IMG/VR virus record: IMGVR_UViG_3300015078_000001
Span: 18,468 to 82,467 of that record
Length of the DNA stretch: 64,000 nucleotides
Source: a virus
Strand: one strand, 5' to 3'
In this document: positions 8,570 through 53,689 of the stretch, piece after piece
Position numbering within the stretch: position 1 is the first letter of the stretch
Layout of the letters: the number at the start of each line of letters is the position of its first letter
The notes under the pieces: model-generated
The model's input: the letters and a program-made list of their open reading frames with translations, nothing else
Database searches by the model: none
Told to the model about the DNA's origin: nothing
Position numbers and translations under genes: made by a program

Positions 8570-8585
8570 TTAAGTACCTTATAAA

Positions 8586-9182: not shown

Positions 9183-9595
9183 TTAAGGCTCCTTATTATT
9201 TTATTTATTGTACAGAGAGTCGTTCAGCTAGGCAGAATGTCTCGCTCTTGTCCATTTTCCGGACTTGTGAAGTTCACTAAAGGTAGTACCCGTCCACATT
9301 CTTTGCAAACAAGCCGACCTTCGGGATCGACTGAAAAGAGATGGAAGCACTCACCGTTCATCGTATTTGCTTGTTGTTCCATAATAGTTAATACTAAGGG
9401 GCTTAACGGCGCAATCACTATAGAGTACACGGCGACTTAAGTATCGCCCCTGTCGGCAGAACTGCTGAATCAGACTTATGTTGTCCCTGCCGAATTAAAA
9501 TTGTGCAGAAAGAGATATAAGGGTCTCTTACCGCGATATTACCCCGCCCGTATCCGCTCAGGTGCCAGAGCGCATCCATCAACTAGGATGGAAGA

Positions 9596-9748
9596 TTAAA
9601 CTTTCTTAATCAATGATTTAGCGGAAGCTTCCAGGCTGGTTACCTTAGCAACTGCTTCGTTGTACTTAGCTTCTATTTTACTGTAGTACAGGTAAACAAC
9701 CGTTCCACCCGCAACTACTCCGAGAATAAAGGGAATCAAAAAACTCAT
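9596..9748 (-). CDS. Small membrane protein (holin/spanin-associated candidate)
   Basis: Hand-translated MSFLIPFILGVVAGGTVVYLYY..., 50 aa, one hydrophobic helix, immediately after the spanin-like gene. Confidence 0.5.
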   Translation of the reverse strand: MSFLIPFILGVVAGGTVVYLYYSKIEAKYNEAVAKVTSLEASAKSLIKKV

Positions 9749-9755
9749 AACATCC

Positions 9756-11230: not shown

Positions 11231-11307
11231 TGGAGCTAACGGTAAGGAATCGAACCCTACGGCCCGTATATTACAAGTATACCGCTCTGCCTCTGAGCTA
11301 CGAAAGC
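11231..11307 (-). tRNA. tRNA-Thr(UGU), atypical
   Basis: Cloverleaf with anticodon loop CTTGTAA and encoded CCA; two T-T mismatches in the acceptor stem and a 6-bp T stem. Confidence 0.75.
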
Positions 11308-11464
11308 GTAAATTTTTGACAGACTTAATCGGCATCTGTCGTGAGCATCTCCGTGCAGCCGGAACATTTCTGTTCACTATTGGTGGAGCTTTAGAGATTT
11401 GAACTCTACTGAATTTTTCTTTGCAAAAGAAACGACCACCCCGAGCAGTCCCAAACCCCAATAA

Positions 11465-11650
11465 CTATTCCTCTACTACAATATCTATCTCAATACCATG
11501 TGTATTGTGTAACTTGTGTTGTGCTTCTTTCAGCTTATGGAACAGGACTTTTACCTTATGTTCCAGAACTGCCACTCTATGTTCCAGAGTACCGGTATCA
11601 CCGGTCTTGGCGGGTACATTAAATTCCAAATTCGTCGCTTCGTTACTCAT
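11465..11650 (-). CDS. Hypothetical protein
   Basis: 61-aa ORF with AAGGA RBS. Confidence 0.5.
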   Translation of the reverse strand: MSNEATNLEFNVPAKTGDTGTLEHRVAVLEHKVKVLFHKLKEAQHKLHNTHGIEIDIVVEE

Positions 11651-11702
11651 ATCATCCTTTAGATAAGATTGCCGTCAGGCTTTTACACCTGACGGCTTGT
11701 TA

Positions 11703-12335
11703 TTAAGCAGTAACTAAGAAGCTAGCCGCCTTCGAAGTCATACCGTTAACAGTAACTATAAAATCAGCAGGGATTGCCGACGCCACAGGAATTGCAAACG
11801 TTATGGAAGTATCAGACCAGGCCGAAACCTGAGCCTTCGCTCCACCAACAGTTACCGAACTCACACCCTGGATTGCTCCAAAGTTAAGACCGGAAACAGT
11901 TACGTTAGAGCCAATCGGCCCTGACGCAGGAGAGAAGCTGTTAATCACAGGTGGATTGCCCGGATTACCATTCTGAGGGACAGCGGTACCAAGCACGAAG
12001 CTCAGACTTGTTGCTGCTCCGCCTGTACCAACGCCAGCAACCACGTCGATCAAAACCGTAGCAACTGCAACACTAGTATCAAGAGTACCGTCAGCCTTTA
12101 GAGCCGAAGCAGTCAGAAGCAGGTTAGCCTGAAGCTTACTTGCACCAAAAATGAAACCAGACGCCAGCATACCCGCTGCGGGAGTAGCATCAGGAACAAT
12201 TGTTGCCGAAGCTAAATCAGCCGAAACAACGCTGATTGTGTCGCCAAGCGGCAACGCTGCCGGGGCGAGTTTAGAATCTAATCCACTAACTGAGTAGGAA
12301 ACCTTTTGATCGGTACCTAATTGAAAATTTGCCAT
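11703..12335 (-). CDS. IPT/TIG (Ig-like) domain protein, probably virion-surface
   Basis: C-terminal PVINSFSPASGPIGSNVTVSGLNFG...WSDTSITFAIP is a typical IPT/TIG signature. Confidence 0.8.
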   Translation of the reverse strand: MANFQLGTDQKVSYSVSGLDSKLAPAALPLGDTISVVSADLASATIVPDATPAAGMLASGFIFGASKLQANLLLTASALKADGTLDTSVAVATVLIDVVAGVGTGGAATSLSFVLGTAVPQNGNPGNPPVINSFSPASGPIGSNVTVSGLNFGAIQGVSSVTVGGAKAQVSAWSDTSITFAIPVASAIPADFIVTVNGMTSKAASFLVTA

Positions 12336-12502
12336 TTTTATATCTTTTATTACTTTATTTTACTTTACTACCTCTGTCATATCTGGTCTGTAGCCTTATA
12401 AATCCTATACTACCTTCTCAGAAAAGAAAAATCTAATGACAGGAATCCGGTTACACCGGTCTTGTACCTATTGGGTACAAACTTTTAAAAACTTATTAAT
12501 AA

Positions 12503-12576
12503 TGGTCTGGGTTAATTGAATCGAACAATTTCCACATGTTTCCAGAACACGGATGCGACCACTACACCAAACCCAG
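12503..12576 (-). tRNA. tRNA-Pro(UGG)-like, atypical anticodon loop
   Basis: CTGGGTT/AACCCAG acceptor, A73, CCA and TTCGATT T loop; anticodon loop TCTGGAA (C33, A37). Confidence 0.6.
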
Positions 12577-13153: not shown

Positions 13154-13958
13154 TTTCCGGACATGAATCCTTCCAGGTACTTTGTAATAGAAACAGAGTA
13201 TGCTCCAATCGTTCTGCTAATTCTTTTGACATTTTATCTAAAGCATCTACTGTTGCCGGATTAGACATACAGTAATCTTCTATTATGGCTAAGTATTCAT
13301 CATTGGTACAGTAATCCTCCCACATTGTACCTGTTACACTTCTGTTCTTTGAGACTTTGGTAGATTCAATCCCCATAACTTCCTATCCTCCCATTTCAGA
13401 ATATCGTACTGTTCTACTACTTCCCACTTACCTTCATCCTCTTCTATTGATATAATACTTCCCGGTTTAACTTTACTATTGTAATCAAGCCAGGTTAATA
13501 TAAAGACGTTATTACCTTTTGTATTATCAGGATTTCTAACTAACCGAAGTTTTGTCTGTATTCGCTTCATACCAGATATCCCTTCTTGTACGGTCGTCCA
13601 TTTTCCGGACATCGTTCACTTGTTCTTCTGCCATTACTCTTTCCTGAGTCCAGTTAGGGCCGTACCAGGTATCAAACATACCTAATACAAATACTATATC
13701 AGATATAGGTCGCCCACATATTATGGCGTTTCTAAAAGCATTTACAGCATTCACTATTAATTCAGCATCTTTAGGGTCTTTCACATATCCCTTAACTCCG
13801 ACATGGTTGGCTGTAAGTATAAGATTATCTCCATAATATCTAGATTCCGGAGTTTCGGGAACATCTTTCTTTAAATCTCCGTTCTCTAATTTCCATAATG
13901 GTTCTTCTTTATACGCTATCCATTTACCAGACATCAATTGTTCTGCTTTTATCTCCAT
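13110..13958 (-). CDS. Three overlapping small hypothetical genes (13110-13376, 13334-13612, 13536-13958)
   Basis: ORF track; co-oriented and overlapping. Confidence 0.45.
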
Positions 13959-14143
13959 TATATCTCCGTACTCATTTGTATTCTGTGTATAAGGTATTCT
14001 CCAACCAATTTAGAGAAATGCCTGCCGATACAGAAGTTAGCTATAGAATTGGCAGCCTGTATATCTTTATCATCCATTCTGCCAAATTTCGAGCATTCGG
14101 ATAAAGGCAGTACTACTATTGGTTTTTCTATTTCTTTATTCAT
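13958..14143 (-). CDS. Hypothetical protein, probably leaderless
   Basis: ATG (MNKEIEKP) lies 7 nt downstream of a consensus -10 box. Confidence 0.55.
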   Translation of the reverse strand: MNKEIEKPIVVLPLSECSKFGRMDDKDIQAANSIANFCIGRHFSKLVGEYLIHRIQMSTEI

Positions 14144-14149
14144 AATACT

Positions 14150-14178
14150 ATTATACACAGCCCACTAGTGCATGTCAA
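14150..14178 (-). promoter_or_regulatory. Consensus sigma70-type promoter driving the leftward operon
   Basis: TTGACA-17 nt-TATAAT, exact consensus on the minus strand. Confidence 0.85.
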
Positions 14179-15173
14179 ATCTAAGTTCCAGGGACGTTAT
14201 AAGGTAGTAGAAGTGTACCGTCCCAGATGGTACCTTATTAAAGGAAACAGGACTGGCTTGTACTTTTTGTATATTGGTGTATATTGGCGTATACCTGTGC
14301 AGGCCGAGGGTATTACCAAGTCACCCAAGCCCGCTCCCCCTACTCAAAGGGGGTTGATCCCCCTGCCTAGTCTAGCTAAATCGTAAAGTAGTACTCCCTA
14401 GATATAAATATAATCATATCTAAGACTTAGCTCAGGATATAAACCCGAGAATTCTCGCATTTTAGGCCAATTGGCGTATACTTGAGAAAACAGCTATTTT
14501 GTGAATATACAGTTTGGCGTATACTTTTGCGAATGACGTAAAACAGGGGAAAATAGAATGGAGTGGTGGACTAGGTAACCCTATGGTAATCCCATAGATA
14601 TATTTACGCTGATATCTACGCCAATTGTATATTTATACCTGTAATCGGACCGCGATTCCGCCTTTTCAACGCAATCCGCTGATTCCAAAGGCTTTACGCG
14701 ATATCGCCGAAACGCTCAAAACCTGTCAAGCCCCTTTTTTCGCTTTGTTTTGAATGAGTTAGAGCCGGTCGCCGAAACACCGTGCTAGATTGCATTCACC
14801 GCAACGGAGCAGCGGCAAACATGAAAATCACTATCTACCCCGACAATAAACAAAATATCCACGTATCTGAAGTGCTAGCAATGCCCGTACATATTCCGGT
14901 ATATTTTGAAGTGTTTAACGGGACATACGAGTATTACATTTACGTCTAGTCACTATCGGGCACACTCACCGAGTGTTTCCGAGTAGAAACTAGCGTCCAA
15001 CACTGGCTGAATGCAAAGAGACGGTCTGAGACACGGGGAATACCCCTTAGCATATCTCAGGCTGTTAGATGCCGTGAAAAACTGGTATAAGTCTGGTTTA
15101 CCTGTAGGGGAATACGCTTTGGGAAATAGTTAAAAGCCTTTGTTATCAGGCATTTAGCCTTCCCTTGATTCCG

Positions 15174-15622
15174 CCGGTATGTGTAAAGCCTTTACAGGGT
15201 GCATGTTAGTTAGCGGTCTCTGAGTCTAAACGGGATTACTCACGGTTACGACCGTCACCGTCACAGAGTCTGACATGTATCCTGTTAAGGTTTTACTGGT
15301 ATCATACCGGGGATAAGCTACTACGGGATGGAAGAGCATGACAGGGTAATCTCAATACCCTATGTGATTGAATAGACTTCGCCTATGGTTAAAGCGGATT
15401 TATAACCCGCCCAGAATCGGCCTGTATTTGAGCAACGGATACAGGCGTTATCCGGTTAGCACTATGCGAGTTAGGTCAATCCATGAGAACAAGCAATCCG
15501 ATTGTCGGTTGTGAACGGTCAACGGGAAACAAACCCGAAGGGCAAACCGAATGACATCTAGGATTTATCCTACACACTCGATACAGGATTACACACGGTG
15601 ATTACCGTGTCATGCTCTTCCA
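15174..15622 (+). ncRNA. Putative structured RNA with two long stems
   Basis: 15174-15208 pairs with 15271-15310 (G-U pairs); 15329-15350 pairs with 15601-15622 (22 bp, 1 mismatch); no ORF of 60 aa or more. Confidence 0.55.
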
Positions 15623-15649
15623 ATGGCAGTCTAACAGGGTAATTACCCT

Positions 15650-15841
15650 TTGGAGGATAGTTTGAGATATCTCGTAATCGCAGTATTGCTCATGTCCGCT
15701 ATGTGCCTGGGAGAGTCAAAGCAGATTCTTCAGGTGAAGAGAATTAACCCGTCGAATGTGGTTCTCTCCTGTGCCAACGGAGCTGATCCAACGGGGAAAG
15801 AGATAAGCAAGCATGTATTGCTTATCAGTTGCGGGGAATAA
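15650..15841 (+). CDS. Small secreted/membrane protein
   Basis: Signal-peptide-like LVIAVLLMSAMCLG; a GGAGG RBS points to a start a few codons into the ORF. Confidence 0.5.
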   Translation: MEDSLRYLVIAVLLMSAMCLGESKQILQVKRINPSNVVLSCANGADPTGKEISKHVLLISCGE

Positions 15842-16016
15842 ATAGTAAACACGGTGAAGTGATTACCGTGTTAGGCTGCTAAGTTCTTTCAAGTCTTAGG
15901 GAAATAGGTTCGCTATGATGTCCATTTACTGGACATGATAGGGAATCTACGGATATCCCAACGGGAGTAAACCCTAAAAAAATCAGGACATACGCAAGTA
16001 TGTGAAGTAAATTAAC

Positions 16017-16421
16017 ATGGCTAACCCGATTAACCCGACAACGGGCAAAGAATACACTATCGCGGAACTTATGGCGAAGGTCGCCGAACTTGAGGCCCAG
16101 GCCGCCGCGAAGAACACGCTTTTCATGGGTGTTTCCGAAGAGACCGGCGTTATCTGCTTGTACGGTCTTCAGAAATTCCCCGTTTCCCTTCACCGGGAGC
16201 AATGGGAACGTGTCATCTCTCCCGAAACCCAGGCACTGGTCAAAGGATTCATCTCGAATCCCGATGTGATCACACTGACGCCTGGCAAAGCAAGCGCCGA
16301 AGATGCCAAAAAGAACGCGGCTACTCTGCGCAAGGCAAGTCAGAAACAGCTCAACGGATTGCCGATTGTACGCCGGCAGTCCGCTGAAACCAAAGCGAAG
16401 TTTGCTAAGGCATCGGCGTAG
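16017..16421 (+). CDS. Early protein, coiled coil plus VSExxGVxxYGLxxFPVxLxxEQW family
   Basis: Motif GVSEETGVICLYGLQKFPVSLHREQWERV. Confidence 0.7.
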   Translation: MANPINPTTGKEYTIAELMAKVAELEAQAAAKNTLFMGVSEETGVICLYGLQKFPVSLHREQWERVISPETQALVKGFISNPDVITLTPGKASAEDAKKNAATLRKASQKQLNGLPIVRRQSAETKAKFAKASA

Positions 16422-16476
16422 TATTGTTAGGCCGGATACTAACCTATCCGGCTTATAGAGTACTATTCAAGATGTT

Positions 16477-16716
16477 ATGAACAACACAATCATGTCCCGT
16501 CCATTAAGCGGAAACGCTTTGTTAGGCGCAATCAGGCGCATTCAAAACCATTTTACCGGCGTACATCGGTACAGGCCGGTATGTGGTGCGGTCGCAGTAA
16601 CATTCGCCGATGGTATGACTTTTGCCCATCGGTCAGCCAGGGAACTTCGGCATATCAGGCCCGTAGCAGAACGTATCGACGCAGAGTACAAACGGCATAG
16701 CAAGGCGAAAGAGTAA
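16477..16716 (+). CDS. Hypothetical early protein
   Basis: 79-aa ORF flanked by long hairpins. Confidence 0.5.
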   Translation: MNNTIMSRPLSGNALLGAIRRIQNHFTGVHRYRPVCGAVAVTFADGMTFAHRSARELRHIRPVAERIDAEYKRHSKAKE

Positions 16717-17826
16717 CATGACGGAGCATATACTTCGCTGTATGCTTCGATGATATTACTCTAAATGGAGAAAACATGGAATATACAATAAGGGAATCTC
16801 AGCCTATGACGGATGATACTGTTACTTGTCCGCATTGTGGTGCAATAACCTGTATTGCAGTACCCTGCCCACGTTGCGGGAAAATCAGTTAGTCCAGTAA
16901 ATGGACATGGCCGATATCCTTCGGGGTATCGGCTTTCTTTTTGTCTGGAGTATTCGCTTTTTGTACGCCTGGCGGAAAACGCGCCAGGATGCCCTATAAA
17001 CGCTCGACAGCATTTTGAGCATGTACCCTGCGTGGATCAATGCAAACGGGCCTGTATCGGCCACGGAGGCATCAAAAACCCGTATCCTGGTGACCGATTG
17101 AACCCCTGCCGTTCACGTTCCGCCGAATGACCGCTAGAATTTCCCCTGAATTTCCATCCTACCTATACTCTATAAGTCAAGGTATTTATTCAAAATACCA
17201 TATAAAAATCCTCAAAATACTACAAATTGTATACAAAATATAGTTTTTTGTATATGTTTTATAATATATTCGATGCTATTATATAGCCCTGGCATAGTAA
17301 TAGCCGTGCCCTGGCCGGCGAGCCGATGTCCGGAAAATGGACATAAACCGAATCGAATCAGCGGTTTAGCGGCGATGCCGCACCGTCCTGAGCAATTTCA
17401 GGGCCAAAATCTGTCAAGCCCCAAACGAAAAAAAATTTCTCGTTTGTTTTCAACGGTTTACAGCCGAAAATTTTTTGCGGCTCCGTTGTTTGCAGTCGGT
17501 CGTGCGACAATGGTGTTGCGCCAAAGCCCGTGTATAGCAGGGCAGGGAAGGAAAGATGGCACAACCAATACGGGTAAGAGTAACTAAGCCGCTAATGAAG
17601 TCTACCTGGAATCCTGGTAAGATGAACAGGAAAATAAAGGTAAATGCGGCTAAGAACAAACTTAATGAGTTTGGGAATAGGGAGGCTGTAAAATGAATAC
17701 TAAAGTACTAGCCTTTGAAGAACGTAAATCAAGGTTTTTACTATACACTATGGAAAAACCTTATAAGTTTGTATGGGCGGAAAGTTTAGGATGTTGGATG
17801 GCGTTTAGGTTAGCAAACTTACCAGT

Positions 17827-23081: not shown

Positions 23082-23160
23082 CGCGCCTTAGTCCAATTTG
23101 GTAGGAGACAGAGAACTTAAAATTCTCCCAGTGTCAGTTCGAATCTGACAGGCGCGACCA
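23082..23160 (+). tRNA. tRNA-Leu(UAA) with short variable loop
   Basis: CGCGCCT/AGGCGCG, A73, CCA; anticodon loop CTTAAAA; GTCAG-TTCGAAT-CTGAC; 5-nt variable region. Confidence 0.85.
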
Positions 23161-35400: not shown

Positions 35401-38400
35401 ATGAATGACAAGTTTTTAGGTTCATATGATACTATAACTAATCCAGCAAAGTTGGATTTAGATTCGATAGAGCAATCATTAAAATTAATAATGAATGCTC
35501 CGAATGCTGATTCACTACAAAACTGGACTCAGTCTAAACTTATAAAAATACCCGATGATCCCTGGATCAGCTCTAATAGTGTAAAAAAACAAGAATCTGA
35601 TGTGCCTAGTACTATTCTTGATTTAGTGCCTGGATCAGTCCCGGAAGATTGGCATCATCATATCAATCTTTGTGATAGAGTTGGCGGACTTAATTTTTTA
35701 GGGGGTGGAATTCCTGTACAAGGTGGGTGGATTTATAAAAATACCGTTGTACATGAATCCGCCATAATTGGGTCTGATTGCGCTGTATACGATAACGCTG
35801 TAATAGGTGTAAATGTTCAGATATTTAATAATTGTAAAATATACGGCAATGCTAAGATTTTAAAAGGTATAATTTACAATAAAGTAAAAATATATGGCGA
35901 TGTAGTGATCGATAACAGCAGTATGATGAGTGTTAACGCACCGTATATACACCATAACGTAGAAATTTTCGGGAATGTAAGTATTTTTGGAGATTGTTAC
36001 GTCAGAGACGACAGTAAAGTTTATGAAAATGTCGTTATCAGACAAGATGTCAAAATTATTTCTTCAAAAGTATGTGGAAACGTCACTCTTTGTGATAATT
36101 CATACGTAAGCCGAAGCGATGTCTCAGGTACGGTAGTATTATTTAAAAATGCTTGTATAGTAGACTGTACTTTTATGGGTAAAGATTTTATATGTACAGA
36201 AGGTGTTATATATAGCCAGGAACAGGATGAAAAATACAGGTTAAAACCAATTTTATATAGAACTCAAAAGGCTAAAGGTCTTAAAGTTTTAATGAATTTT
36301 AATTTGTTAGATTCTTCTACTAGTTCTATTTTTGATATAAATACAGTTGAGCCTTGCGTACTATGTAAGAAGTTTGTACGTCCGTGTCCGGTTACTCCCC
36401 GACACGGTTTTGTCGATTCAAGGGTTGTTAAAACGATAGAAGAAGCGACAAAACTAATCGAAGAAACTAAACTTGCCGATCCAGAAGCGGAAATTATAGC
36501 TATGATTGCTTATGATCCGCCTTATTCCGGTGTATGGACACAGGGTAAAATTACTATCGGGCCTGGTAATGACGGGGCTACTTCAGGAAAAGATACCATA
36601 ACTATCCCTATTTCAGGAAGTATTACATATCCTGAAAAAATGGCTGTTATGTGTAAATATGCCGGGGTTACAGAATCTCCTTATGTGGAAATTTTATGGC
36701 TATCAACCTCTACTTATCACGGGGGTAATTATAATAACATATTTGCTCCAATATATGTTCAGTTAAGAGATGGCCCTAAACTTCCAGTTACTGTTGATTT
36801 TATACCTGAAGAATTTACAGTATCTTCTGTTGTTTTAGCAGAAGGAAGTCTTCTTGAATGGGAAGAAAAAGTAAAGACGTTTACACCCGGAACAGTTGTA
36901 TACCATCCCGGAGGCAGTCTTTCCAGCCATTATTCCGTACACTGTGTTTTGAATAACATCCCCGTTCTTATTAGTAAGCAGCCTAAAATCGAGGATAAGA
37001 TAAGGCCATGTCAGAATCAAAATTTTATTATGGATTCTGAAAAAATCAGGCAAGGGTTTGTATACTCCCTTACTTACGATATATCATATATGTCAGCTAC
37101 GTATATGATGCTCGTAGGGTGCCATTCTATATACGATTGGCGGGGAAAAGAAGATTTCCTGCTTGGATTTAGTTTAGGATGTGCGTTTCGGCTGACAGTA
37201 ATAGCCGGAGTAGCGGAATATCGTCACTACCACCATATTAAATCCATAGACGGTGAAAGAAGTACCGTTTATGATAATTTATGGGAATATACCGCGAAGT
37301 TTAGTACCCGCCATATGTTTTTGGAAGCATTAAAAGCCTTTAAAAAAGGTCCAAAACCAGGTTCTGGAGGCATCGGCGGGCCTAAATGGTATGATTATGG
37401 TATTCATGCTGTTGAAATCATGAACTATTTAATTCAGAATGATATTTCTAAATCATTTGAAGTACTGAATACTCTGATTAATGCTGTTCATAACGGTGGA
37501 TGGGGGTTTAATAAATTTGCCAATCAGTCTGATCTGGATGATGCAGCGGCCTCCCCTTCTATAGTTATGATGAAAGTAGCTCCGATTTTATATGAAATTA
37601 AGAAGCATGTCCGGAAAATGGACACGGTTGAATTTCAAAATCTGAGCAAATTCTTCGTAAATCGTAGAAAATGGGAACTTGATATGAGTAAGAGTATAAC
37701 TCAGGTCAATACTGATATCTGCGGATGCGAGGAACATGAGTGTCTTGTATGCTATCCTGAAGGCTGTAAGTGTAAGAGTAAAACATGTCACGATTGTGGT
37801 ATTTGTGGTAAGTGCTGTACTTGTAATAAATGTTTTTGCTTAAAATGTAAGCCTGAAGGTTGTAAATGTAAAAATAAATCGTGTCATGATTGTGACAACT
37901 GTGCGAAATGCTGCGGGTGTCAGAAACACGATTGTATTAAATGCTATAAATATGGTTGTGGTTGTAAAAGTAAAAAATGCCATGATTGTAAGCTTCCCGA
38001 TTGTATATACTGTACTAAAAAGAGTAAGATAACAGAAGTTCAGGCCAGAATACTTGGTAAGTTTATTCTTATTCATTATAAACGACAGGGTGCATCTGGA
38101 TATGAAACCATAAAGAAAGAAATACCGATCAATAATCTGGATAAAATAAAGTTGTGGATTAGTGAAAATAGTACTTCTTCTTCGTGGACAGATAGTACTA
38201 CGGTTATGTATGCTCCCGGTGTATGGAAATATACTACTTGGATGCTCGGGCCGTTTGCTGTCGAGTTACCTTTTCCTTTGGGTAGTTGCGGGTGTGATGG
38301 CCATACCTGTGTTATATGTTACCCTAAAGGCAATTGTCCGTGTAAAAATAAGTATTGCCACGATTGTTATAATCACTGTTGTCTGTATTGTTTTCCTGAC

Positions 38401-38601
38401 GGTTGTGCATGTAACTGTAAAGATTGCCATAAAATACCGTGTATATGCGACGTTATTGACGATGATTACTGCGGATGTCACGATCATGACTGTTCTAAGT
38501 GTTTTCCGGACGGATGTGACTGTTCCTGTGATAGTTGTCATGATGACGGATGTGATAATTGTATAACTCCGGACGAGCCGGAAGAAGAGGTAAGTTACTA
38601 A
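35401..38601 (+). CDS. Giant multidomain protein: left-handed beta-helix, PEP-utilizer-like phosphohistidine domain and Cys-rich repeats
   Basis: Hexapeptide repeats (AIIGSD, AVIGVN, VQIFNN); GTVVYHPGGSLSSHYSVH...NNIPVL; repeated CGCxxHxCxxCxPxGCxC units. Confidence 0.65.
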   Translation: MNDKFLGSYDTITNPAKLDLDSIEQSLKLIMNAPNADSLQNWTQSKLIKIPDDPWISSNSVKKQESDVPSTILDLVPGSVPEDWHHHINLCDRVGGLNFLGGGIPVQGGWIYKNTVVHESAIIGSDCAVYDNAVIGVNVQIFNNCKIYGNAKILKGIIYNKVKIYGDVVIDNSSMMSVNAPYIHHNVEIFGNVSIFGDCYVRDDSKVYENVVIRQDVKIISSKVCGNVTLCDNSYVSRSDVSGTVVLFKNACIVDCTFMGKDFICTEGVIYSQEQDEKYRLKPILYRTQKAKGLKVLMNFNLLDSSTSSIFDINTVEPCVLCKKFVRPCPVTPRHGFVDSRVVKTIEEATKLIEETKLADPEAEIIAMIAYDPPYSGVWTQGKITIGPGNDGATSGKDTITIPISGSITYPEKMAVMCKYAGVTESPYVEILWLSTSTYHGGNYNNIFAPIYVQLRDGPKLPVTVDFIPEEFTVSSVVLAEGSLLEWEEKVKTFTPGTVVYHPGGSLSSHYSVHCVLNNIPVLISKQPKIEDKIRPCQNQNFIMDSEKIRQGFVYSLTYDISYMSATYMMLVGCHSIYDWRGKEDFLLGFSLGCAFRLTVIAGVAEYRHYHHIKSIDGERSTVYDNLWEYTAKFSTRHMFLEALKAFKKGPKPGSGGIGGPKWYDYGIHAVEIMNYLIQNDISKSFEVLNTLINAVHNGGWGFNKFANQSDLDDAAASPSIVMMKVAPILYEIKKHVRKMDTVEFQNLSKFFVNRRKWELDMSKSITQVNTDICGCEEHECLVCYPEGCKCKSKTCHDCGICGKCCTCNKCFCLKCKPEGCKCKNKSCHDCDNCAKCCGCQKHDCIKCYKYGCGCKSKKCHDCKLPDCIYCTKKSKITEVQARILGKFILIHYKRQGASGYETIKKEIPINNLDKIKLWISENSTSSSWTDSTTVMYAPGVWKYTTWMLGPFAVELPFPLGSCGCDGHTCVICYPKGNCPCKNKYCHDCYNHCCLYCFPDGCACNCKDCHKIPCICDVIDDDYCGCHDHDCSKCFPDGCDCSCDSCHDDGCDNCITPDEPEEEVSY

Positions 38602-39896
38602 TGACTTGTCCTAAAAATAGCGGACTAAACCATGAGTGGCAGAGCAAAACTGCCACTCAGATATCTTGTATTCATTGTGACATGAACTGGAATGACTATG
38701 CTCCTGACACCGTAGAAAAAGAGCTAATACAAACAAACGATGGCCGACAGATTTATAAACCAAACGGTCATACAGTTTCGTGTATGTGTACCGATTGTAA
38801 CCCAGATGTAAAACAACACAATGTAGACTGTATTTGCTCGGACTGTGTAGATGATAATCTTGGATGGGTTGTAGTTTGCTCTACTTGTAAGGATAATGAT
38901 ATAGAATACCCTATAAAAGAGGGTGAAACAGAAGACCATACAGTAGCCTGGTGTAACAAATGTAATGCAAATTTTGATCCGTTTTGGGATATAGGAAACG
39001 ATACTCCGCCTGTTTCTACTCCCGGAAACAAACCGTTTCTGTTATCGTCAGGCGATCCTAACGTAAATAAACCTGTTAGTTATATTTCATATGCTTCTAC
39101 GGTGTGTAGTCATCCTCCTACTCATGTTATTAATGGTACGACATGGAATATATATGCAGGTAGACAGAACGACGTAGATAAAGCGGCAGATAATTTCGAT
39201 ATAGTTCTTAATCTTACCGGTTGGCCGTTACAAAGTGAAAAAGAACACGTTATTCCGTTCCAGGAACTCAGTAAATGGAAAAAGAAGTATAAAACTGACT
39301 ATAAATATAAAGAAATTTGTTTAAACTGGCCAGATATGGGAGTTGTTAATCTTCCTAAGGAATTCTGGCTAGATTTAATCAAACTTTTTGATAAAAAGAA
39401 GTCTAAAGTATTGATGTTTTGTATAGGTGGTCATGGAAGAACTGGTACAGCGATGGCGGTTCTTATGGTACTTGGTCTTGGCTATACTCCTGAAAAGGCA
39501 GTAGCCTGGGTAAGAGATAACTATTGTAAGCAGGCTATTGAAACCTGGAAACAGATTAACTATGTTTATAGTATGGTGGGAGAAACCGCACCACCTTCTA
39601 AAGAACGTAAAGACTTCGTATCTAATACATCTGCGACATCTATGTTTAAAAAAGATTGTAGCGCAGATGACAAATGTATTTGTATTACTTGTATGCCTGA
39701 TGCTGAGTATAAAATTCATAAAGAATCTAACTTTACTATCTGGCCACAGTCTTATTTAGACAGAAAAGCAGAACTTATGAAGAGAAAAAAAGAAACGGAA
39801 ACTATACAGGAAAAAATAGATAAAGATTTTGATAAAACATGGTTAAGGGATGGAGAAACAGAAGAAGATTATTTAGCGATGTGGTCAGGATTATAG
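38601..39896 (+). CDS. Protein tyrosine/dual-specificity phosphatase with Cys-rich N-terminus
   Basis: WPD loop (LNWPDMG) and CX5R P-loop FCIGGHGRTGT. Confidence 0.85.
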   Translation: MTCPKNSGLNHEWQSKTATQISCIHCDMNWNDYAPDTVEKELIQTNDGRQIYKPNGHTVSCMCTDCNPDVKQHNVDCICSDCVDDNLGWVVVCSTCKDNDIEYPIKEGETEDHTVAWCNKCNANFDPFWDIGNDTPPVSTPGNKPFLLSSGDPNVNKPVSYISYASTVCSHPPTHVINGTTWNIYAGRQNDVDKAADNFDIVLNLTGWPLQSEKEHVIPFQELSKWKKKYKTDYKYKEICLNWPDMGVVNLPKEFWLDLIKLFDKKKSKVLMFCIGGHGRTGTAMAVLMVLGLGYTPEKAVAWVRDNYCKQAIETWKQINYVYSMVGETAPPSKERKDFVSNTSATSMFKKDCSADDKCICITCMPDAEYKIHKESNFTIWPQSYLDRKAELMKRKKETETIQEKIDKDFDKTWLRDGETEEDYLAMWSGL

Positions 39897-42687: not shown

Positions 42688-42762
42688 CAAAGGTTAAGTT
42701 AACAGAATAAACCTCGTTCTTCTAAAGCGAGAATAGCGGTTTGAGTCCGCTACCTTTGTCCA
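42688..42762 (+). tRNA. tRNA-Arg(UCU)
   Basis: CAAAGGT/ACCTTTG, CCA; anticodon loop CTTCTAA. Confidence 0.85.
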
Positions 42763-43082: not shown

Positions 43083-43340
43083 ATGCATATAAAACGATTC
43101 TTTTGCTTTGAATGCAGACCTTATAGATGGTTCCGTCGCAGAAGAGATTTAAAAAATCATATGATAGATGGTGCTCACCGAAGAGGTCAATATATGATGT
43201 TTCTTACTGAAAGAGCAATAATGAGAAAACATACTTCTGCGGCTAAATGGCTTAGAGTAGAGAACAAACGATCCGATCATTGGTTTGAGAATAGCGAAGT
43301 TTTAGAATTTAGGTGGTGGGGTAGAAGGAAAAAGAAATGA
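43083..43340 (+). CDS. Basic hypothetical protein
   Basis: 85-aa ORF with RBS immediately after a dyad site. Confidence 0.5.
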   Translation: MHIKRFFCFECRPYRWFRRRRDLKNHMIDGAHRRGQYMMFLTERAIMRKHTSAAKWLRVENKRSDHWFENSEVLEFRWWGRRKKK

Positions 43341-44347
43341 TAAACATCTCGATTGACTTTGAAAGCGCGTCATCTGTTGATCTATCCGTATGCGGCTTAG
43401 ATAGGTATGTTACAGATAAATCAACTAAAATTTTGATGATGGCGTATGCTTTTGAGGATGAATCTGTACAGATATGGGAACCGCACAAAGAGAAATTTCC
43501 TGACCGAGTATTGAAAGCTTTCTATGATTCTGAAGTAACTATATTTGGGTGGAATGTAAGCTTTGAACGGCAGATACTTGCATATTGTTTAGGTCATGAA
43601 CTTCCGTATGTTAAATTCAAAGATTCTATGGTCATGGCCCGGTATATGGCTTTACCAGGGTCGTTAGATGAATGCGGAAGTGTGTTAGGAATTGATACTA
43701 GCCTTCGGAAGATGCAGAATTCTGATAGATTGAAAGATATGTTTTGCCTACCAGCTAAAGAAGGTGGAGAAGAAACGCTTTTCGGTATATCTGAAGATGT
43801 GTTTCGTACACATGAAACTAATCCTGTTGAATGGCAGGATTTTGTCTCATACTGCAAACAAGACGTAGTTGCAGAACGTGCTATTAAGAACAGATTAAAG
43901 AACTTCCCTCTCCCTGAACATGAATGGGAGGCCTGGTACTTAGATCAGGAGATAAATGAGCGGGGAATAGCCGTAGATATGGAATTAGTTGAAGGTGGTA
44001 GCTATATTGCGGGTATAGATAAGCAAAGACAATTAGATAAAATACAATCTATTACTAAACTTGATAATCCTAACAGCCGAGATAAAATTCTTCAATGGTT
44101 AAGAGACCGTGGCTACCCTTTTCATGAATTAGGAAAAGCTTTCGTAGCTAGAGCTTTGGCTGAGAAAAATGAAATGACTGACGAAGCTAAAGATATTCTT
44201 TTATTAAGACAAAAATCAGCTAAAACTTCATCACAAAAACTTATCAATATAGCTAATCAAGTTAGTAATGACGGACGTTTACGCTTTCAATATAGTTTTA
44301 TGGGTGCGAGCCGAACCGGAAGATTTTCATCAGGAAGTGGAGAATGA
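43337..44347 (+). CDS. polA: DNA polymerase family A, N-terminal part (3'-5' exonuclease plus thumb)
   Basis: ISIDFES (ExoI), WNVSFER (ExoII), YCKQDVVAE (ExoIII); ends GASRTGRFSSGSGE. Confidence 0.88.
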   Translation: MINISIDFESASSVDLSVCGLDRYVTDKSTKILMMAYAFEDESVQIWEPHKEKFPDRVLKAFYDSEVTIFGWNVSFERQILAYCLGHELPYVKFKDSMVMARYMALPGSLDECGSVLGIDTSLRKMQNSDRLKDMFCLPAKEGGEETLFGISEDVFRTHETNPVEWQDFVSYCKQDVVAERAIKNRLKNFPLPEHEWEAWYLDQEINERGIAVDMELVEGGSYIAGIDKQRQLDKIQSITKLDNPNSRDKILQWLRDRGYPFHELGKAFVARALAEKNEMTDEAKDILLLRQKSAKTSSQKLINIANQVSNDGRLRFQYSFMGASRTGRFSSGSGE

Positions 44348-44532
44348 TACTTTACGCAGCAACTTATTACGAAACTGATGGGTATACCTATGGTGTAGAA
44401 ACAGTTCTAGCAATTTGTGATAGCAAAAGTAAAGCAGATGAAGTGTGTTTAAAAGATAACGAAGTTTATCCCGCAAGAGATTTAACCTATTATGAGGTTA
44501 AAGAATTCGAGATTAACCAACTGTGGGAATAA
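44344..44532 (+). CDS. Small ORF inserted within the polymerase gene
   Basis: 62 aa; ATGA overlap with the upstream stop and overlap with the downstream GTG start. Confidence 0.65.
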   Translation: MILYAATYYETDGYTYGVETVLAICDSKSKADEVCLKDNEVYPARDLTYYEVKEFEINQLWE

Positions 44533-45566
44533 ATGTTCAAAATTTAGTTCGACCAGGAAGTGAAGTATCTAAAAACTTAGAAGAAGCTATCTCTCTTGTG
44601 AAGGCAAAAGACCTTGAAGGTATTCAGAAAAGATTTAAAACTGAGCCGTTAGATTTAGTGGGAAGTCTTATCCGATCAGTTTTTGTCGCACCTAAAGGTA
44701 AAAAGCTAGTTATATGCGACTTATCGGCGGTTGAGAATAGAGTTTTAGCTTATATTTGCGACGCACCTTCTATCTTAAAAGTATTTCAAGATAAACTTGA
44801 TCCGTATGTATATTTTGCTGTTGATCTTTATAACGAACCATACGAAGTTTTGTTAAAAGATAAACAGAAAAGACAAAATGCTAAACCAGCAGTTTTGGGC
44901 GCAGGATACGGATTGTCTGGTGGAGAACAGATTACTTCCGATAATGGCGATATCGTTTTCACCGGACTCATGCAATATGGGCGTTCACTAGGAGTGGAGA
45001 TATCTAGGGAACTAGCTCACAAATCTGTAGAAGTATTTAGAGAGAAACATCATGAAGTGGTTAGTTGCTGGTATGCTTTAGAAAAAGCAGCTACTAAGTG
45101 CATTCTTACTAGACAGCCACAAATAGTCAATATAGTTAAATTTAGTATGGTAGAAGATGTTATGTGCATAACTCTTCCTAGTGGCAGAGATTTACACTAC
45201 GTTTCTCCTAGAATAATAGACGATGTTTGGCCTAATGGTAGAAAGAAAAAATCCATAGAGATTTTCGGTATGGATTTAGTTACTCATGTTTGGAACAGAA
45301 CTAGAACTTATGGTGCCAAAATTTTGGAAAATATTGACCAAGCTATATCGAGAGATTTGTTAGTAGAATCCATGTTTAATGCCCGAAAAATGGGATTTGA
45401 TATAGTTATGCATTCGCACGATGAGTTGGTAACAGAGGTAGAAAAAGATTCAAAACTAGGGATTGACCAACTACGTTCTTGTATGATACAATCTCCTATA
45501 TGGAGTAACTCTAATTTAATTTTAGACGCCGCTGGATTTGAATCAAAAATTTACAGAAAAGAGTGA
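44523..45566 (+). CDS. polA: DNA polymerase family A, C-terminal part (palm/fingers)
   Basis: INVQNL, motif A ICDLSAVENRVLA, motif B RQNAKPAVLGAGYG, motif C MHSHDELV. Confidence 0.9.
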   Translation: MGINVQNLVRPGSEVSKNLEEAISLVKAKDLEGIQKRFKTEPLDLVGSLIRSVFVAPKGKKLVICDLSAVENRVLAYICDAPSILKVFQDKLDPYVYFAVDLYNEPYEVLLKDKQKRQNAKPAVLGAGYGLSGGEQITSDNGDIVFTGLMQYGRSLGVEISRELAHKSVEVFREKHHEVVSCWYALEKAATKCILTRQPQIVNIVKFSMVEDVMCITLPSGRDLHYVSPRIIDDVWPNGRKKKSIEIFGMDLVTHVWNRTRTYGAKILENIDQAISRDLLVESMFNARKMGFDIVMHSHDELVTEVEKDSKLGIDQLRSCMIQSPIWSNSNLILDAAGFESKIYRKE

Positions 45567-45567
45567 T

Positions 45568-47311
45568 ATGAAACTTAAAAGTTTAATCGGAAAAACCATA
45601 GATAAACTAGAACTTAACACACAATCAGACGAATTTACCATCCATTTCACAGACGGATTGTATATTAAATTCGGAGTAGAAGGAGATTGTTGCTCCCATA
45701 GCTGGATTGAACACTTAACAGCCCCTAATGACGTACATGGTGCGGTAATAACGGATGTATTTGAAGGCGGTAGTGCGGCCTGGGATAACCATGAATGTGT
45801 AGATGGAAAAGATAAATACGGATATGTTACACACGTATGTGGTCATGACTGTCTACAGGTATATAATACTCAGTTTGATACGGATAGAGGGTCGATTATA
45901 TTAGAATATAGAAACGATTCTAATGGCTACTATGGTGGTAATTTAACACTTATTGACACTAATTTGCCTAAAAATGACGAAGATGACTGGAGTTGGAATT
46001 ATATCTCTTACTAATTCTGCCTATGTCCATTTACCGGACATAGAGGAGGAGAAAATGAGAAAAAGCTTAGTATTGTTATTTTGTTTAATACTTGTTATAT
46101 GTGGTTGTAATTCAGTAGGATACAAGCAATTCTATGTAAGGTCACACGGTAATGGGTACAGTGTATCTTGTCATCATTCTGGTGGAGACGTAGATATAAC
46201 TAAATCATTTGTTAGCCCTAAAGAAGCTCAGGATTTGGCTGAAAAATTAAATAAAGAAGTCGGAGATAACTGGGCCGCAAAGGACACGAATTAATATGAG
46301 AAAAGAAGTTCCGATAACAGATACTATAGTAGAAGCTACTTGCGATCTATGCGGCGATATACAAGAGTTTGTGGGTGACGTAGAAAAATGTCCGGGGTGT
46401 AAAAGAGATTTTTGCCGAAAAAATACTTGCTATAAATCCCTGTATCCATTAGACTATGTGTTCTCCTATCCTAACGCACTATGCTCCATATGCTATCCAA
46501 AAATAGATATGTTTATAGACAAAGCCAGGCAACTTCAAAAAGAATTAGACGACAAAATTTCTGCATTAAAAACTAATATAAAACAGGTGCTTAATTATGT
46601 CAAGTGAACCTAATGAACATATAAATAAATACGAGAAAGTAGAATTTGATTGCGGTACTACAGCTACTTTAACTCATATGTCTCCGCAGATGGCCCAACC
46701 TGTAGACCATGATTTCCTTGTAGGTGTAACTATAAATGCAGAACACAGCGGAGGACTTCGTATTCATAACGGCGTTTATACGGGTGAAGTACAAATGCTT
46801 TTTTATTTACGTAATATACCCGCTATTATACATATGCTACAGAGAATTTATAAATCGGGTATGGGTACACATTAATGAGTAAACTCAGCAGATGTACCAG
46901 ATGTGACAGAACTTCAGATGACGTTGAAACTATTCTAGACCCCGACGAGACATTTGAATCTTCTTTATGCTATTTTTGCAGAGTAGATTGGCAGAATTTG
47001 TTCGAAGAGTTTATAAACAATGAAATTTAGTTTGCTCGGAACCAAAGCCTCGTTATCTGGGAGAGGACTCACCCTTTGGTTTCGTGGAGGCGAAAATGAG
47101 TAAAGAACTAGAGTTACTACAAGAACTTGAAAAGCATCTACGAAATACTATACTAGAGGGCGAATTTGTACTTTTAAACACCGAAATTTTTATGTATGAT
47201 CCACCCAATTATGAAGAGTTTCGCGTAGAATCTTGTTATATCGGCGGATTAGAAAGTATCTTAGAGGAATTAGATGAAATACGACAGCAAAAAGAACCGC
47301 TGGAAAACTGA
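45568..47311 (+). CDS. Cluster of small hypothetical genes
   Basis: 45568-46014 (GDCCSHSW...NDSNGYYGG), 46055-46294 (lipoprotein-like), 46296-46607, 46597-46875. Confidence 0.55.
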
Positions 47312-47852
47312 CCGAAAAGTATTTGTAGCGAGTGACCATCATATAGGTCACAAGAATATCATAGAATATGACGGCAGACCGTTCAAAGATGTCCAGGAAA
47401 TGGACGAAATTCTGGTATTAAACCACAATAGTGTAGTATCTCCCAATGATGTAGTTATATTTGCCGGAGATTTTGCGTTAGGTAGTCTGGAACATGCTAG
47501 TAAGATAAGAGATAGATTGAACGGTGATATTTACATTACCTGGGGAAACCATGACGGTCACGCTCGTAACCTTCCCTGGAAGTCTTCAAGTGAGAGAATG
47601 GTAATAAAAGTACAAGGGTATCCTTGTATGGTTATATCTCACTATGCTCAGAGAACATGGTTAAAACAAAGTAAAGGGTATTGGCATCTGTATGGCCATT
47701 CTCACGGTAGTTTACCAGAAGATGGCTCGTTGTCTTTCGATATAGGGGTGAATAGTCACAACTACTATCCCTGGAGTATGGAAGAAATAGCAAAGAAAAT
47801 GAATACAAAACAGATAAAAATAGTCGATCATCACAAAGGAGATAAAGAATGA
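47274..47852 (+). CDS. Calcineurin-like metallophosphoesterase
   Basis: SDHHIGH, GDFA, GNHD and HLYGHSH. Confidence 0.9.
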   Translation: MKYDSKKNRWKTDRKVFVASDHHIGHKNIIEYDGRPFKDVQEMDEILVLNHNSVVSPNDVVIFAGDFALGSLEHASKIRDRLNGDIYITWGNHDGHARNLPWKSSSERMVIKVQGYPCMVISHYAQRTWLKQSKGYWHLYGHSHGSLPEDGSLSFDIGVNSHNYYPWSMEEIAKKMNTKQIKIVDHHKGDKE

Positions 47853-51651: not shown

Positions 51652-51725
51652 AGCCGGATCGTTCAATGGTAGGACGTAATCCTTTGGAGATTACTATAAG
51701 CGTTCGAATCGCTTTCCGGTTACCA
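51652..51725 (+). tRNA. tRNA-Gln(UUG)
   Basis: Cloverleaf; loop CTTTGGA; CCA. Confidence 0.9.
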
Positions 51726-51727
51726 AT

Positions 51728-51816
51728 GCAGGTTAGGCCGATACGGTTTAGCGGCGTGAGTCTGTAAAACTCATTTCCTTCGGGGAGTACAAGTCCGAAT
51801 CTTGTAACCTGCACCA
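51728..51816 (+). tRNA. tRNA-Tyr(GUA)
   Basis: Loop CTGTAAA; long variable arm; A73, CCA. Confidence 0.9.
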
Positions 51817-51824
51817 GTTTTTAC

Positions 51825-51911
51825 TTGGGGTTGGTGGAAAGGCAGACACACTAGTTTTAGGAACTAGCGGGAGAAATCCTATTAGGAGTTCAAATCTCCT
51901 ACCCCAAACCA
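51825..51911 (+). tRNA. tRNA-Leu(UAG)
   Basis: Loop TTTAGGA; long variable arm; A73, CCA. Confidence 0.9.
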
Positions 51912-52546: not shown

Positions 52547-53689
52547 GTGTCTGAAAAACCATTAAGTCATCAGGTAAAAGTAGTAAGAGTTCCTGCGCCG
52601 AGAATCCATTCAAATGCAGATAGCTTGGAAATCCTGGACACGCTTGGATTCCAAACTGTAGTAAGAAAGGGAGAGTACAAAGAAGGCGATCTAGCATTTT
52701 TTGTTTGCCCCGATTCTATAATTCCGCCGGATAAATATCAGTTCTCTTTTCTTTGGGATGGAAAAACTGCTCCAGGAGAAGATATTCCTGTAAAATATCG
52801 AAGAATAAGGGCCGTAAGATTGCGTTCTGTTTGGTCTGAAGGCTTACTAATGCCGGTTAAGTCTTTTCCAGAATTGAAAGATTGTAAAGTAAATGACAAT
52901 GTATCAGATATATTAAATATCCAACACTACCAACCGCCCGATCCCGAAGATATGAAAGGTCAGAACGAACGTGGGCCTAAACGTCATCTTCCTAAGACAT
53001 TTAAAGGCTGGTGCTTCTATATATACTGGAATATAATTGGTAGACTAGGGTTTTCTACTCCTTTACAAGGTAGTAATGAGAAAGGGCCGAAGAACGGAAA
53101 ACCGTATTACGATATTGACAATGGAAAGCACTTCCCGGATGTATTTCAAGAAGGGGAACAGGTAGTAATTACAGAGAAGCTCCACGGTTGTCAGGGAAAA
53201 TATGTATACCAGGATGGTAAAATGTACGCAGGTTCTCGTAACTATTGGAAGAGTAAGAATAGTACCTGTGTATGGAGAAAGACTTTAGCACAAAATAGCT
53301 GGATAGAAGATTGGTGTAAAAAGAACGAAGGACTTACGCTTTATGGAGAAATTGTGCCTGTACAGGGTCAAAACTTCATGTACGGTTGTAAGCCCGGAGA
53401 ATTAAAGTTCTTTGTGTTTGATATACTGAAATTTAATCATACGTGGGTTAGTAAGAAAGATACCGAACCTAATGATTTCTTCGGCTTACTGAATCATTGG
53501 GTTCCGATATTATACATAGGTGAATATGTTAAAGAAGAAGTGAAGAAACTAGTAGAGGGTAAAAGTACTCTCGATAAAAACACCGTTCGAGAAGGTATTG
53601 TTATTACGAGTTACGAAGAAGAACATGTACGGGGTTTGGGAAGAAAGATTTTGAAGCTAATTTCGAACGACTATTTATCTAAAAATTAA
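52547..53689 (+). CDS. RNA ligase (DRB0094/Rnl2-like family)
   Basis: HSNADSLE...VVRKGEYKEGDL OB-like N-terminus; TEKLHG, YGEIV, FVFDI and REGIVI. Confidence 0.88.
   Translation: MSEKPLSHQVKVVRVPAPRIHSNADSLEILDTLGFQTVVRKGEYKEGDLAFFVCPDSIIPPDKYQFSFLWDGKTAPGEDIPVKYRRIRAVRLRSVWSEGLLMPVKSFPELKDCKVNDNVSDILNIQHYQPPDPEDMKGQNERGPKRHLPKTFKGWCFYIYWNIIGRLGFSTPLQGSNEKGPKNGKPYYDIDNGKHFPDVFQEGEQVVITEKLHGCQGKYVYQDGKMYAGSRNYWKSKNSTCVWRKTLAQNSWIEDWCKKNEGLTLYGEIVPVQGQNFMYGCKPGELKFFVFDILKFNHTWVSKKDTEPNDFFGLLNHWVPILYIGEYVKEEVKKLVEGKSTLDKNTVREGIVITSYEEEHVRGLGRKILKLISNDYLSKN

Follow-up and report, generated by a model that had tools for sequence, protein, structure and literature searches.

The closest solved structure to the system reported here is that of rifampin phosphotransferase (RPH), an enzyme whose mechanism and domain plan – a central rifampin-binding domain and a C-terminal His domain – have been described, and which belongs to a large and unexplored group of RPH-like enzymes with unknown substrates (PMC4844700). 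In plants, glucan water dikinase and the phosphatases SEX4/LSF2 are the sole well-known natural pairing of a PPDK-type dikinase and a Cys phosphatase on one substrate (PMC13553574, PMC12892837), and Vibrio phage Virtus has been reported to carry a pyruvate phosphate dikinase (PPDK) as an 'auxiliary metabolic gene' with a glycolytic role (PMC9229204). Here we describe two adjacent genes, gene A and gene B, located in a stretch of 64,000 nucleotides (the window) that spans positions 18,468 to 82,467 of the IMG/VR virus record IMGVR_UViG_3300015078_000001. Gene A codes for a dikinase-like protein in which an all-helical domain takes the putative acceptor position, and gene B for a Cys-based phosphatase; on balance we think it probable that the two are the fused form of a widespread, self-contained phosphoryl-transfer cassette of phages.

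Gene A (Table 1) had been put at about 1066 aa in the initial annotation, and its open reading frame (orf) bears this out: it begins with an ATG at 35401, four bases after the GGAGG of a ribosome-binding site, runs to 38598 on the plus strand (1066 codons), and is followed by a TAA at 38599–38601; the product matches itself at 100% identity in the 109-kb virus record. A search of 1.84 billion proteins with the core of the product (residues 275–760) recovered 943 cluster representatives (50% identity) at an E-value of 0.001 or below, of which 600 lie at or below 1e-30, and almost all of the clusters are from phages; a family of this size means that the features of gene A are not due to chance. 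A word-indexed search gave more than 280 matches, many on contigs of ~95–110 kb, and all are unnamed or 'hypothetical'; the precomputed Pfam domains of these matches include none on the core.

An alignment of 96 homologues of the core (alignment A1) contains 33 invariant columns. The initial annotation had read a GGSLSSH…IP motif with its His retained, and the motif lies at residues 504–510 followed by NNIPVL, with His510 invariant in all 96 sequences; Q289-K290, R327, E364, E430, and Q454-x-R456 are invariant in the preceding ATP-grasp region. An AlphaFold2 (AF2) model of the core built on A1 has a pLDDT of 92.6 and a pTM of 0.90. Compared with the PDB using Foldseek, its top match is RPH (5hv1, E-value 5e-4), and this is followed by dozens of ATP-grasp enzymes, including Ddl, RimK, and synapsin, at a probability of 1.0 over ~195 columns. 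Superposition with VIA-align gives a Z score of 13.3 for RPH (5hv3; 231 aligned residues, 3.3 Å, model residues 8–264 on chain residues 12–860) and 12.5 for PPDK (1dik; 236 aligned residues, 3.7 Å, chain residues 12–501), and the ATP-binding domain of RPH alone gives Z 10.2–10.5 with ~155 aligned residues (model residues 8–186). Since the RPH and PPDK alignments both run through model residue 264, ~70 residues past the end of the ATP-grasp domain, the extra stretch corresponds to the His swivel domain. Matches among the AFDB clusters are named phosphoenolpyruvate (PEP) synthase, PPDK or PEP-utilising enzyme mobile domain, with probabilities of 0.99–1.0. A phospho-His swivel and an ATP-grasp fold at about residues 300–470 had been proposed from the sequence, together with the provision that the proposal should fall if no PEP-utiliser or ATP-grasp structural match could be found; such matches were sought with AF2 and Foldseek and were found, and the proposal stands at the level of the fold. 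Judged from these models, the assignment of the core to the fold and mechanism class of the PEP synthase (PEPS)/PPDK/RPH-type dikinases appears well supported.

The third domain of the core is all-helical in two confident models and is not the PEP/pyruvate TIM barrel. When modeled alone with AF2 it has a pLDDT of 92.6, and it contains 13 invariant positions, mostly polar or aromatic (Gly551, His575, Gly589, Glu606, Arg608, Arg620, Gly659-Gly660, Trp663, Asn690, His697-Asn698, and Lys705). An exhaustive comparison with 48,161 PDB representatives gave a best Z score of 5.9, to generic helix bundles; AFDB clusters returned only an unnamed family member and weak rows, and the ESM Atlas gave TM scores of 0.34 or below by shape and no match by features. 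In BFVD only generic ATP-grasp proteins and Gp139 of Bacillus phage G were found. To our knowledge, the third domain binds the phosphoryl acceptor in every known dikinase, which makes the helical domain the candidate acceptor site of gene A.

These comparisons place gene A between the described dikinases without matching any of them. It shares with RPH (RPH-Lm; 5HV1/5HV3), its best structural match, the ATP-grasp domain and the phosphate-carrying His swivel, and RPH is likewise a non-pyruvate dikinase with a family-specific acceptor domain; however, in RPH the acceptor domain is central and the His domain C-terminal, whereas the order in gene A is ATP-grasp, His, helical. The two acceptor domains are unrelated, there is no detectable sequence similarity between gene A and RPH, and RPH has no phosphatase partner. 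The order ATP-grasp, swivel His, acceptor is that of PPDK and PEP synthase (1DIK, 1KBL, PpsA), but where these have a PEP/pyruvate TIM barrel gene A has the helical domain, and its ATP-grasp and swivel regions are much shorter than theirs. Acceptor-site homology between gene A and glucan water dikinase is not detectable. The glucan dikinase and its phosphatases are not encoded together in plants, whereas genes A and B are adjacent; the plant enzymes share a class of targeting module, and the products of genes A and B both carry Cys-rich modules.

Gene B was proposed in the initial annotation to be coupled to gene A through TAATG and to encode a WPD/CX5R phosphatase with a CxC/CxxC N-terminus of its own, and all three features are present: the TAA of gene A (38599–38601) overlaps the ATG of gene B (38601–38603), WPD is at residues 243–245 and C-I-G-G-H-G-R at residues 274–280, and there are 13 Cys residues among the first 165. 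The best Pfam match is PTP-SAK (PF22784; 30.0 bits against a cut-off of 27), followed by Y_phosphatase (23.0 against 20.9), and in the PDB gene B matches SsoPTP (2I6I) and KAP/CDKN3 (1FPZ). It has in common with PTP-SAK, SsoPTP, and KAP a C-x-G-G-x-G-R-[ST]-G P-loop (CX5R), an upstream general-acid Asp, and a downstream I/V-E-T-x-x-Q-x-x-Y helix, although the sequence likeness is only marginal (E-values of 3e-4 to 1e-2), and it differs from them in its Zn-ribbon-like N-terminal and coiled C-terminal extensions and in its obligate dikinase neighbor. The N-terminal region has a weak match to the NCBIfam family ECs_2282_CxxC (E-value 0.008). Matches of gene B to TALE repeats were also seen, with no significant single stretch, and are repeat artefacts. 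The motif CxG[GS][HK]GR[ST] or a near variant is present in all 51 phosphatase partners compared, and the WPD Asp, the Cys, Gly, Arg, and Gly of the P-loop, and a downstream Glu…Gln pair are invariant across the 46 distinct partners that were aligned. This invariant catalytic set fits an active hydrolase.

The association of the two genes is strict. A phosphatase homologue adjoins the core in each of 50 viral loci, immediately downstream in 47 (often overlapping) and upstream in three, and the same pair is present in 7 of 7 loci from bacterial genomes (four Acidobacteriota, and metagenome-assembled genomes of a Chloroflexi, a Salinarimonas, and a candidate phylum). The isolate Acidobacteriaceae bacterium TAA 166 (ATWD01000001.1), one of the four Acidobacteriota, has a minimal pair on its chromosome, with a 511-aa core and a phosphatase of ~296 aa (positions 7914–10174 of our fetched locus L052), adjoining phage-like genes that include a DNA polymerase processivity factor. 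A complete 41-kb podovirus genome in GenBank (MW202572) contains the same pair, in a gene block transcribed divergently from the terminase gene. Genes for primase/helicase, exonuclease, annealing protein, and terminase recur as neighbors in 6–10 loci each, and a family-A DNA polymerase lies within the fetched flanks of only 4 of the 50 loci of the fused family. When all orfs of 51 loci were clustered no third conserved family emerged. An apparent third family of ~88 aa was rejected as an artefact, as its members are antisense orfs over a conserved motif of the core; antisense orfs of 60–200 aa occur in 33 loci (L003–L048, at ~8000–8500 in each), opposite the F-V-R-P-C-P…H-G-F-V-D-S-R region. 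PADLOC reported nothing for gene A, gene B or the Acidobacteriaceae pair, and our literature searches found no paper on the fused core family.

The 'PPDK' of Virtus provides a second view of the cassette. In the Virtus genome (OK381870) the 'PPDK' gene (691 aa) is followed by genes for a protein of 162 aa, a tyrosine phosphatase of 181 aa, and a hypothetical protein of 347 aa, and then by those for a 'transporter' and for DNA polymerase I; the cassette itself spans positions 13446–17621 of the fetched locus L075. Using hhalign, a profile of the helical domain (A2) aligns with the 347-aa protein with a probability of 93.8% and an E-value of 1.7e-7, covering residues ~590–710 of gene A and placing the motifs E-x-R-H, G-G-x-x-W, and H-N-x-G-x-x-F-N-K in register, and a profile of the phosphatases (A4) aligns with the Virtus phosphatase with a probability of 97.4% and an E-value of 1.1e-11, which places both in the same subfamily. 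Between the dikinase heads the His motif alone aligns, and weakly (probability 0.6%); that they share a fold class we infer through PPDK. No counterpart of the remaining two Virtus genes was found in the cassette of the window. The 347-aa protein is present in 41 cultured phage records, from phages of Vibrio (34), Stenotrophomonas (4), Rhizobium (2), and Rhodobacter (1), and is annotated in nearly all as 'hypothetical protein' (two are putative membrane proteins and one record is unannotated).

The split cassette, as carried by the Vibrio phages Virtus, SIO-2, and Ares1, the Stenotrophomonas phages DLP3/DLP5, and the Rhodobacter phage RcZahn, appears to have the same three parts as genes A and B, but there the head, helical protein, and phosphatase are each encoded by a gene of their own, interspersed with further small genes, whereas gene A unites head and helical domain in one polypeptide; the proteins of the Virtus module are only 181–691 aa, compared with the 1066 aa of gene A. 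Because the helical domain and the phosphatase each have a homologue among the Virtus genes, genes A and B belong to a broader cassette of three parts, of which they are a fused and strongly diverged form; the architecture of gene A is new, a fused version of a phage cassette that awaits characterisation. The domain content of these cassettes contradicts the glycolytic label, and the metabolic annotation of the Virtus gene as PPDK looks wrong.

The remaining parts of genes A and B vary between relatives. Searches of gene A against Pfam, NCBIfam, and PHROGs recognise the beta-helix alone; a hexapeptide beta-helix had been noted in the initial annotation, and is confirmed at residues ~105–270 by Pfam Hexapep (27.6 bits against a cut-off of 27) and by YdcK in the PDB (2f9c, E-value 8.9e-5), with further matches to Pfam LbH_EIF2B, NCBIfam YdcK_fam, and PHROGs 5070, 7964, and 5353 (function unassigned). 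It is rare in the relatives, with Pfam finding it in 5 of 50 full-length homologues scanned, and Pfam scans of these 50 and of 10 long phosphatase partners detected no informative extra domains. The last 307 residues of gene A contain 58 Cys and 13 His. Here the repeating unit is of 27 aa, C-G-C-x2-H-x-C-x2-C-x-P-x-G-C-x-C-x3-C-H-D-C, with a period of 32 aa. The two blocks of such units that had been described are present, but there are three units in each and six in all, rather than about six in each; the full units of block 2 are at residues 963–990 and 1024–1051, with the degenerate one between them. Block 1 has no Pfam or PDB family match. The domain between the blocks shows conserved columns in the full-length alignment (A3) and likewise matches no family.

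Two terms of the initial annotation are not retained. 'Metallothionein-like' serves as a description only, as the repeats resemble structural Zn modules, differ across the family in how many there are and where they lie, and are missing in minimal members. 'Giant protein' overstates the unit, as the functional core is ~450 aa and stand-alone forms of 470–600 aa are common. Many relatives have Cys-rich extensions N- or C-terminal to the kinase, as do many of the phosphatase partners, and the gene A product of the window is the most elaborate of the set compared. In these extensions the number of Cys residues on one partner is correlated with that on the other (Spearman 0.60, n=46, uncorrected for relatedness), which is only suggestive. 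To judge from the sequences, the ~450-aa core bears the beta-helix and the Cys/His repeats of Zn type as appendages specific to certain lineages, and the repeats may bind metal.

From these data we propose a mechanism, with fair confidence in its chemistry. The ATP-grasp domain of gene A would bind ATP, and His510 on the swivel would attack its beta-phosphate, with AMP and Pi or PPi as the expected products. The swivel domain would then carry the phosphate to the helical domain, which would pass it to a hydroxyl, or a group like it, on a substrate other than pyruvate. Since there is no third conserved gene and the cassette is self-contained, this acceptor substrate is made by no other conserved phage gene and is probably supplied by the host. 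The translationally coupled gene B phosphatase would remove a phosphomonoester from the same substrate or within the same pathway, and the beta-helix and Cys/His repeats on the partners probably scaffold or target the enzymes. A writer/eraser relation on one target, as the initial annotation had it, is plausible from the linkage at 57 of 57 loci and the matching Cys-rich appendages. The analysis itself shows the folds, the conserved motifs, the linkage of the genes, and the homology to the split cassette, and from these the phosphorylation of the His, the direction in which phosphate moves, a substrate common to both enzymes, and the binding of metal are predicted. The pairing recalls that of glucan water dikinase with SEX4, and also the logic of the kinase and phosphatase of T4 Pnkp, so that either one substrate may be written and erased or two groups may be handled in sequence. 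A bolder reading, which we offer tentatively and regard as rather doubtful, is that phages use a system of their own, with a new acceptor fold, to phosphorylate and dephosphorylate a macromolecule or signal of the host as they take it over or counter its defences.

Several observations weigh against the proposed mechanism. The Pfam models PF01326 (PPDK_N) and PF00391 (PEP-utilizers) match nothing at an E-value of 10 or below in the whole record, although control genomes do match, and in a scan of the proteins PPDK_N, PEP-utilizers, and PEP-utilizers_C have no match at or below 1. Searches of PDB sequences with the core, using phmmer and a profile, also gave nothing. By profile hidden Markov model (HMM), then, gene A falls outside the PEPS/PPDK/RPH superfamily; of the other marks of that superfamily, the N-terminal ATP-grasp domain is seen at the fold level only, and the mobile His domain with GG-x-x-[ST]-H is present. 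Alignments by hhalign to PpsA, to PEPS/PPDK, and to the Virtus 'PPDK' have probabilities below 1% and are not significant. The sole alignment of A1 with Escherichia coli PpsA sets GGSLSSH on GGRTCH (PpsA residues 400–470), and those with six PEPS/PPDK sequences pair Q-K290 with GGK, E430 with a conserved Glu, Q454-x-R456 with LQxR, and His510 with the catalytic His; these non-significant registers are in line with the structural superposition. If a kinase and a phosphatase worked on one abundant substrate, ATP would be consumed in a futile cycle, and the two enzymes may instead have different groups or separate molecules as their targets. The analysis names no substrate, and metal binding by the repeats is predicted from sequence.

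Among the alternatives, nucleic-acid end healing by the logic of T4 Pnkp would avoid the futile cycle, as cooperation on different ends explains the strict linkage without one: the dikinase would phosphorylate a 5'-OH, the phosphatase would remove a 3'-phosphate or 2',3'-cyclic phosphate, and a ligase could then rejoin RNA or DNA that a defence nuclease of the host had cleaved. We think this unlikely, although the neighboring genes are often those of replication or recombination, the window encodes an RNA ligase, and Pfam places gene B closest to the 'Swiss Army Knife' phosphatase domain, PF22784. Swiss Army Knife proteins are linked to RNA repair, and Zn-type modules often bind nucleic acids. 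However, RNA ligase PF09414, the only ligase family searched for, is present in only 12 of the 50 carrier records and in 4 of the 21 with a completeness of 90% or more; the PDB and AFDB comparisons revealed no nucleic-acid-binding fold in the helical domain, and we know of no dikinase-type polynucleotide kinase. An obligate part for the cassette in RNA repair is unlikely. It is about equally improbable that the cassette inactivates a small molecule in the manner of RPH, with the dikinase phosphorylating a hydroxyl of an anti-phage metabolite or signal made by the host or a competitor and the phosphatase having a separate or regulatory role. RPH is the closest solved structure, the RPH-like enzymes are as noted above a large group whose substrates await description (PMC4844700), and known relatives mostly phosphorylate small hydroxylated molecules (PMC12167813); the self-contained nature of the cassette and its variable early-gene contexts would also suit such a role. 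It leaves the obligate phosphatase partner at 57 of 57 loci unexplained, and gene A differs from RPH in its domain order and in its acceptor domain, which shows no relation to the one that binds rifampin.

The strict linkage and translational coupling could also mean that the phosphatase acts on the dikinase itself, either resetting phospho-His510 or taking the phosphate on its Cys. Relays of the phosphotransferase system (PTS) do pass phosphate from His to Cys, but the invariant general-acid Asp and E…Q pair fit a hydrolase better than a carrier and the minimal partners are plain phosphatase domains of ~190 aa, and we give this little credence. Reversible phosphorylation of a polymer such as host glycogen or an envelope polysaccharide is just as hard to credit: glucan water dikinase with SEX4/LSF2 is the one well-known precedent for such a pair on one substrate (PMC13553574, PMC12892837), and the class of targeting module shared by those enzymes has a parallel in the Cys-rich modules on both proteins here, yet Pfam finds no carbohydrate-binding module in the 50 full-length homologues or the 10 long phosphatase partners, and the proteins show no secretion signal on reading. 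Least probable of all are two further roles. An auxiliary PPDK or PEP synthase interconverting pyruvate and PEP would agree with the annotation and glycolytic role given for Virtus (PMC9229204) and with the shared ATP-grasp and His domains, but the PEP/pyruvate-binding barrel is missing, so that pyruvate is not supported as the substrate; the third domain is all-helical, the PEP-utilizers_C, PPDK_N, and PEP-utilizers HMMs are unmatched, and the conserved phosphatase has no place in the reaction. The other role is in DNA hypermodification, where phosphorylation of 5-hydroxymethyl-pyrimidines of the phage DNA by the dikinase would provide a leaving group for further substitution. Phage hypermodification pathways do use a kinase step, and the cassette is often near replication genes; against this, hydroxymethylases of PF00303 are found in only 2 of the 50 carrier records, in 1 of the 21 near-complete ones, and not at all in the genome of the window, and clustering the orfs of the 51 loci linked no further modification gene to the cassette. 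The low co-occurrence of ThyA-type enzymes weakly refutes this role, which we consider as remote as the pyruvate one.

The record that contains the window is 109 kb long, derives from an uncultured phage, and has an estimated completeness of 72%. In the window, the large terminase is on the minus strand and is accompanied by a long plus-strand early/replication block, within which the gene A/gene B pair is located; a family-A DNA polymerase in two parts is encoded there together with an RNA ligase, an exonuclease, and a replication initiator. The nearest cultured relative of the terminase is from an Acidobacteria phage, the G+C content of the window is only ~38%, and assignment of a host on this basis is uncertain. 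There are eight tRNA genes (Thr, Ala, Pro, two Leu, Arg, Gln, and Tyr), including a Gln-Tyr-Leu cluster. The two polymerase orfs map to positions 673–979 and 979–1225 of PHROG 17. The RNA ligase and phosphoesterase of the window are without linkage to the cassette in most relatives. Coordinates of all features are given in Table 1.

Table 1. Features of the gene A/gene B pair and of other genes in the window. Positions are those of the window; gene coordinates of A and B include the stop codon.
Feature	Position	Strand	Residues and remarks
Gene A	35401–38601	+	1066-aa multidomain dikinase-like protein
Left-handed beta-helix (hexapeptide repeats)	35713–36216	+	aa ~105–272; accessory
ATP-grasp nucleotide-binding domain	36244–36810	+	aa ~282–470; AF2/Foldseek/VIA-align
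Phospho-His swivel domain	36811–37020	+	aa ~471–540; predicted phosphocarrier His510 at 36928–36930
All-helical putative acceptor (substrate) domain	37033–37665	+	aa ~545–755
Cys/His repeat block 1	37720–38010	+	three 32-aa units (aa 774–864) and tail; regular expression and direct reading
Conserved C-terminal non-Cys domain	38011–38280	+	aa ~871–960 (~90 aa); between the Cys blocks
Cys/His repeat block 2	38287–38568	+	aa 963–1056; two full units and one degenerate
Gene B	38601–39896	+	431-aa Cys-based phosphatase
CxxC/CxC-rich N-terminal region of gene B	38601–38990	+	putative Zn ribbons
PTP-fold catalytic domain of gene B	39093–39605	+	aa ~165–335; Asp245 at 39333–39335, Cys274 at 39420–39422, Arg280
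Large terminase	1807–3819	-	nearest cultured relative Tunturiibacter phage Tunturi_3 (Acidobacteria phage), 27% identity
tRNA genes	11231–12576, 23082–23160, 42688–42762, 51652–51911		
Family-A DNA polymerase	43337–44347 and 44523–45566		two adjacent orfs, 175-base gap
Phosphoesterase	47274–47852		phrog_547; early block
RNA ligase	52547–53689		phrog_968/PF09414; early block

The interpretation that we favor, that genes A and B are the fused form of a phage phosphoryl-transfer cassette, bears on a family in which none of the ~940 clusters with the core has a name or a Pfam family for it, and related cassettes in cultured phages of Vibrio, Stenotrophomonas, Rhizobium, and Rhodobacter carry the label of a glycolytic PPDK. 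Because cultured phages carry the cassette, the question is directly testable, and the TAA 166 isolate might offer a way in for experiments. With the helical domain, the range of acceptor sites known among dikinases would be widened, and the presence of a conserved, self-contained, ATP-consuming kinase/phosphatase pair in the early regions of phages implies a host-directed activity, so far unassigned. If the tentative reading as a phage system acting on a host macromolecule or signal is correct, phages would possess in the cassette a new type of enzymatic strategy, and the His-relay dikinases would gain a new class of substrate.

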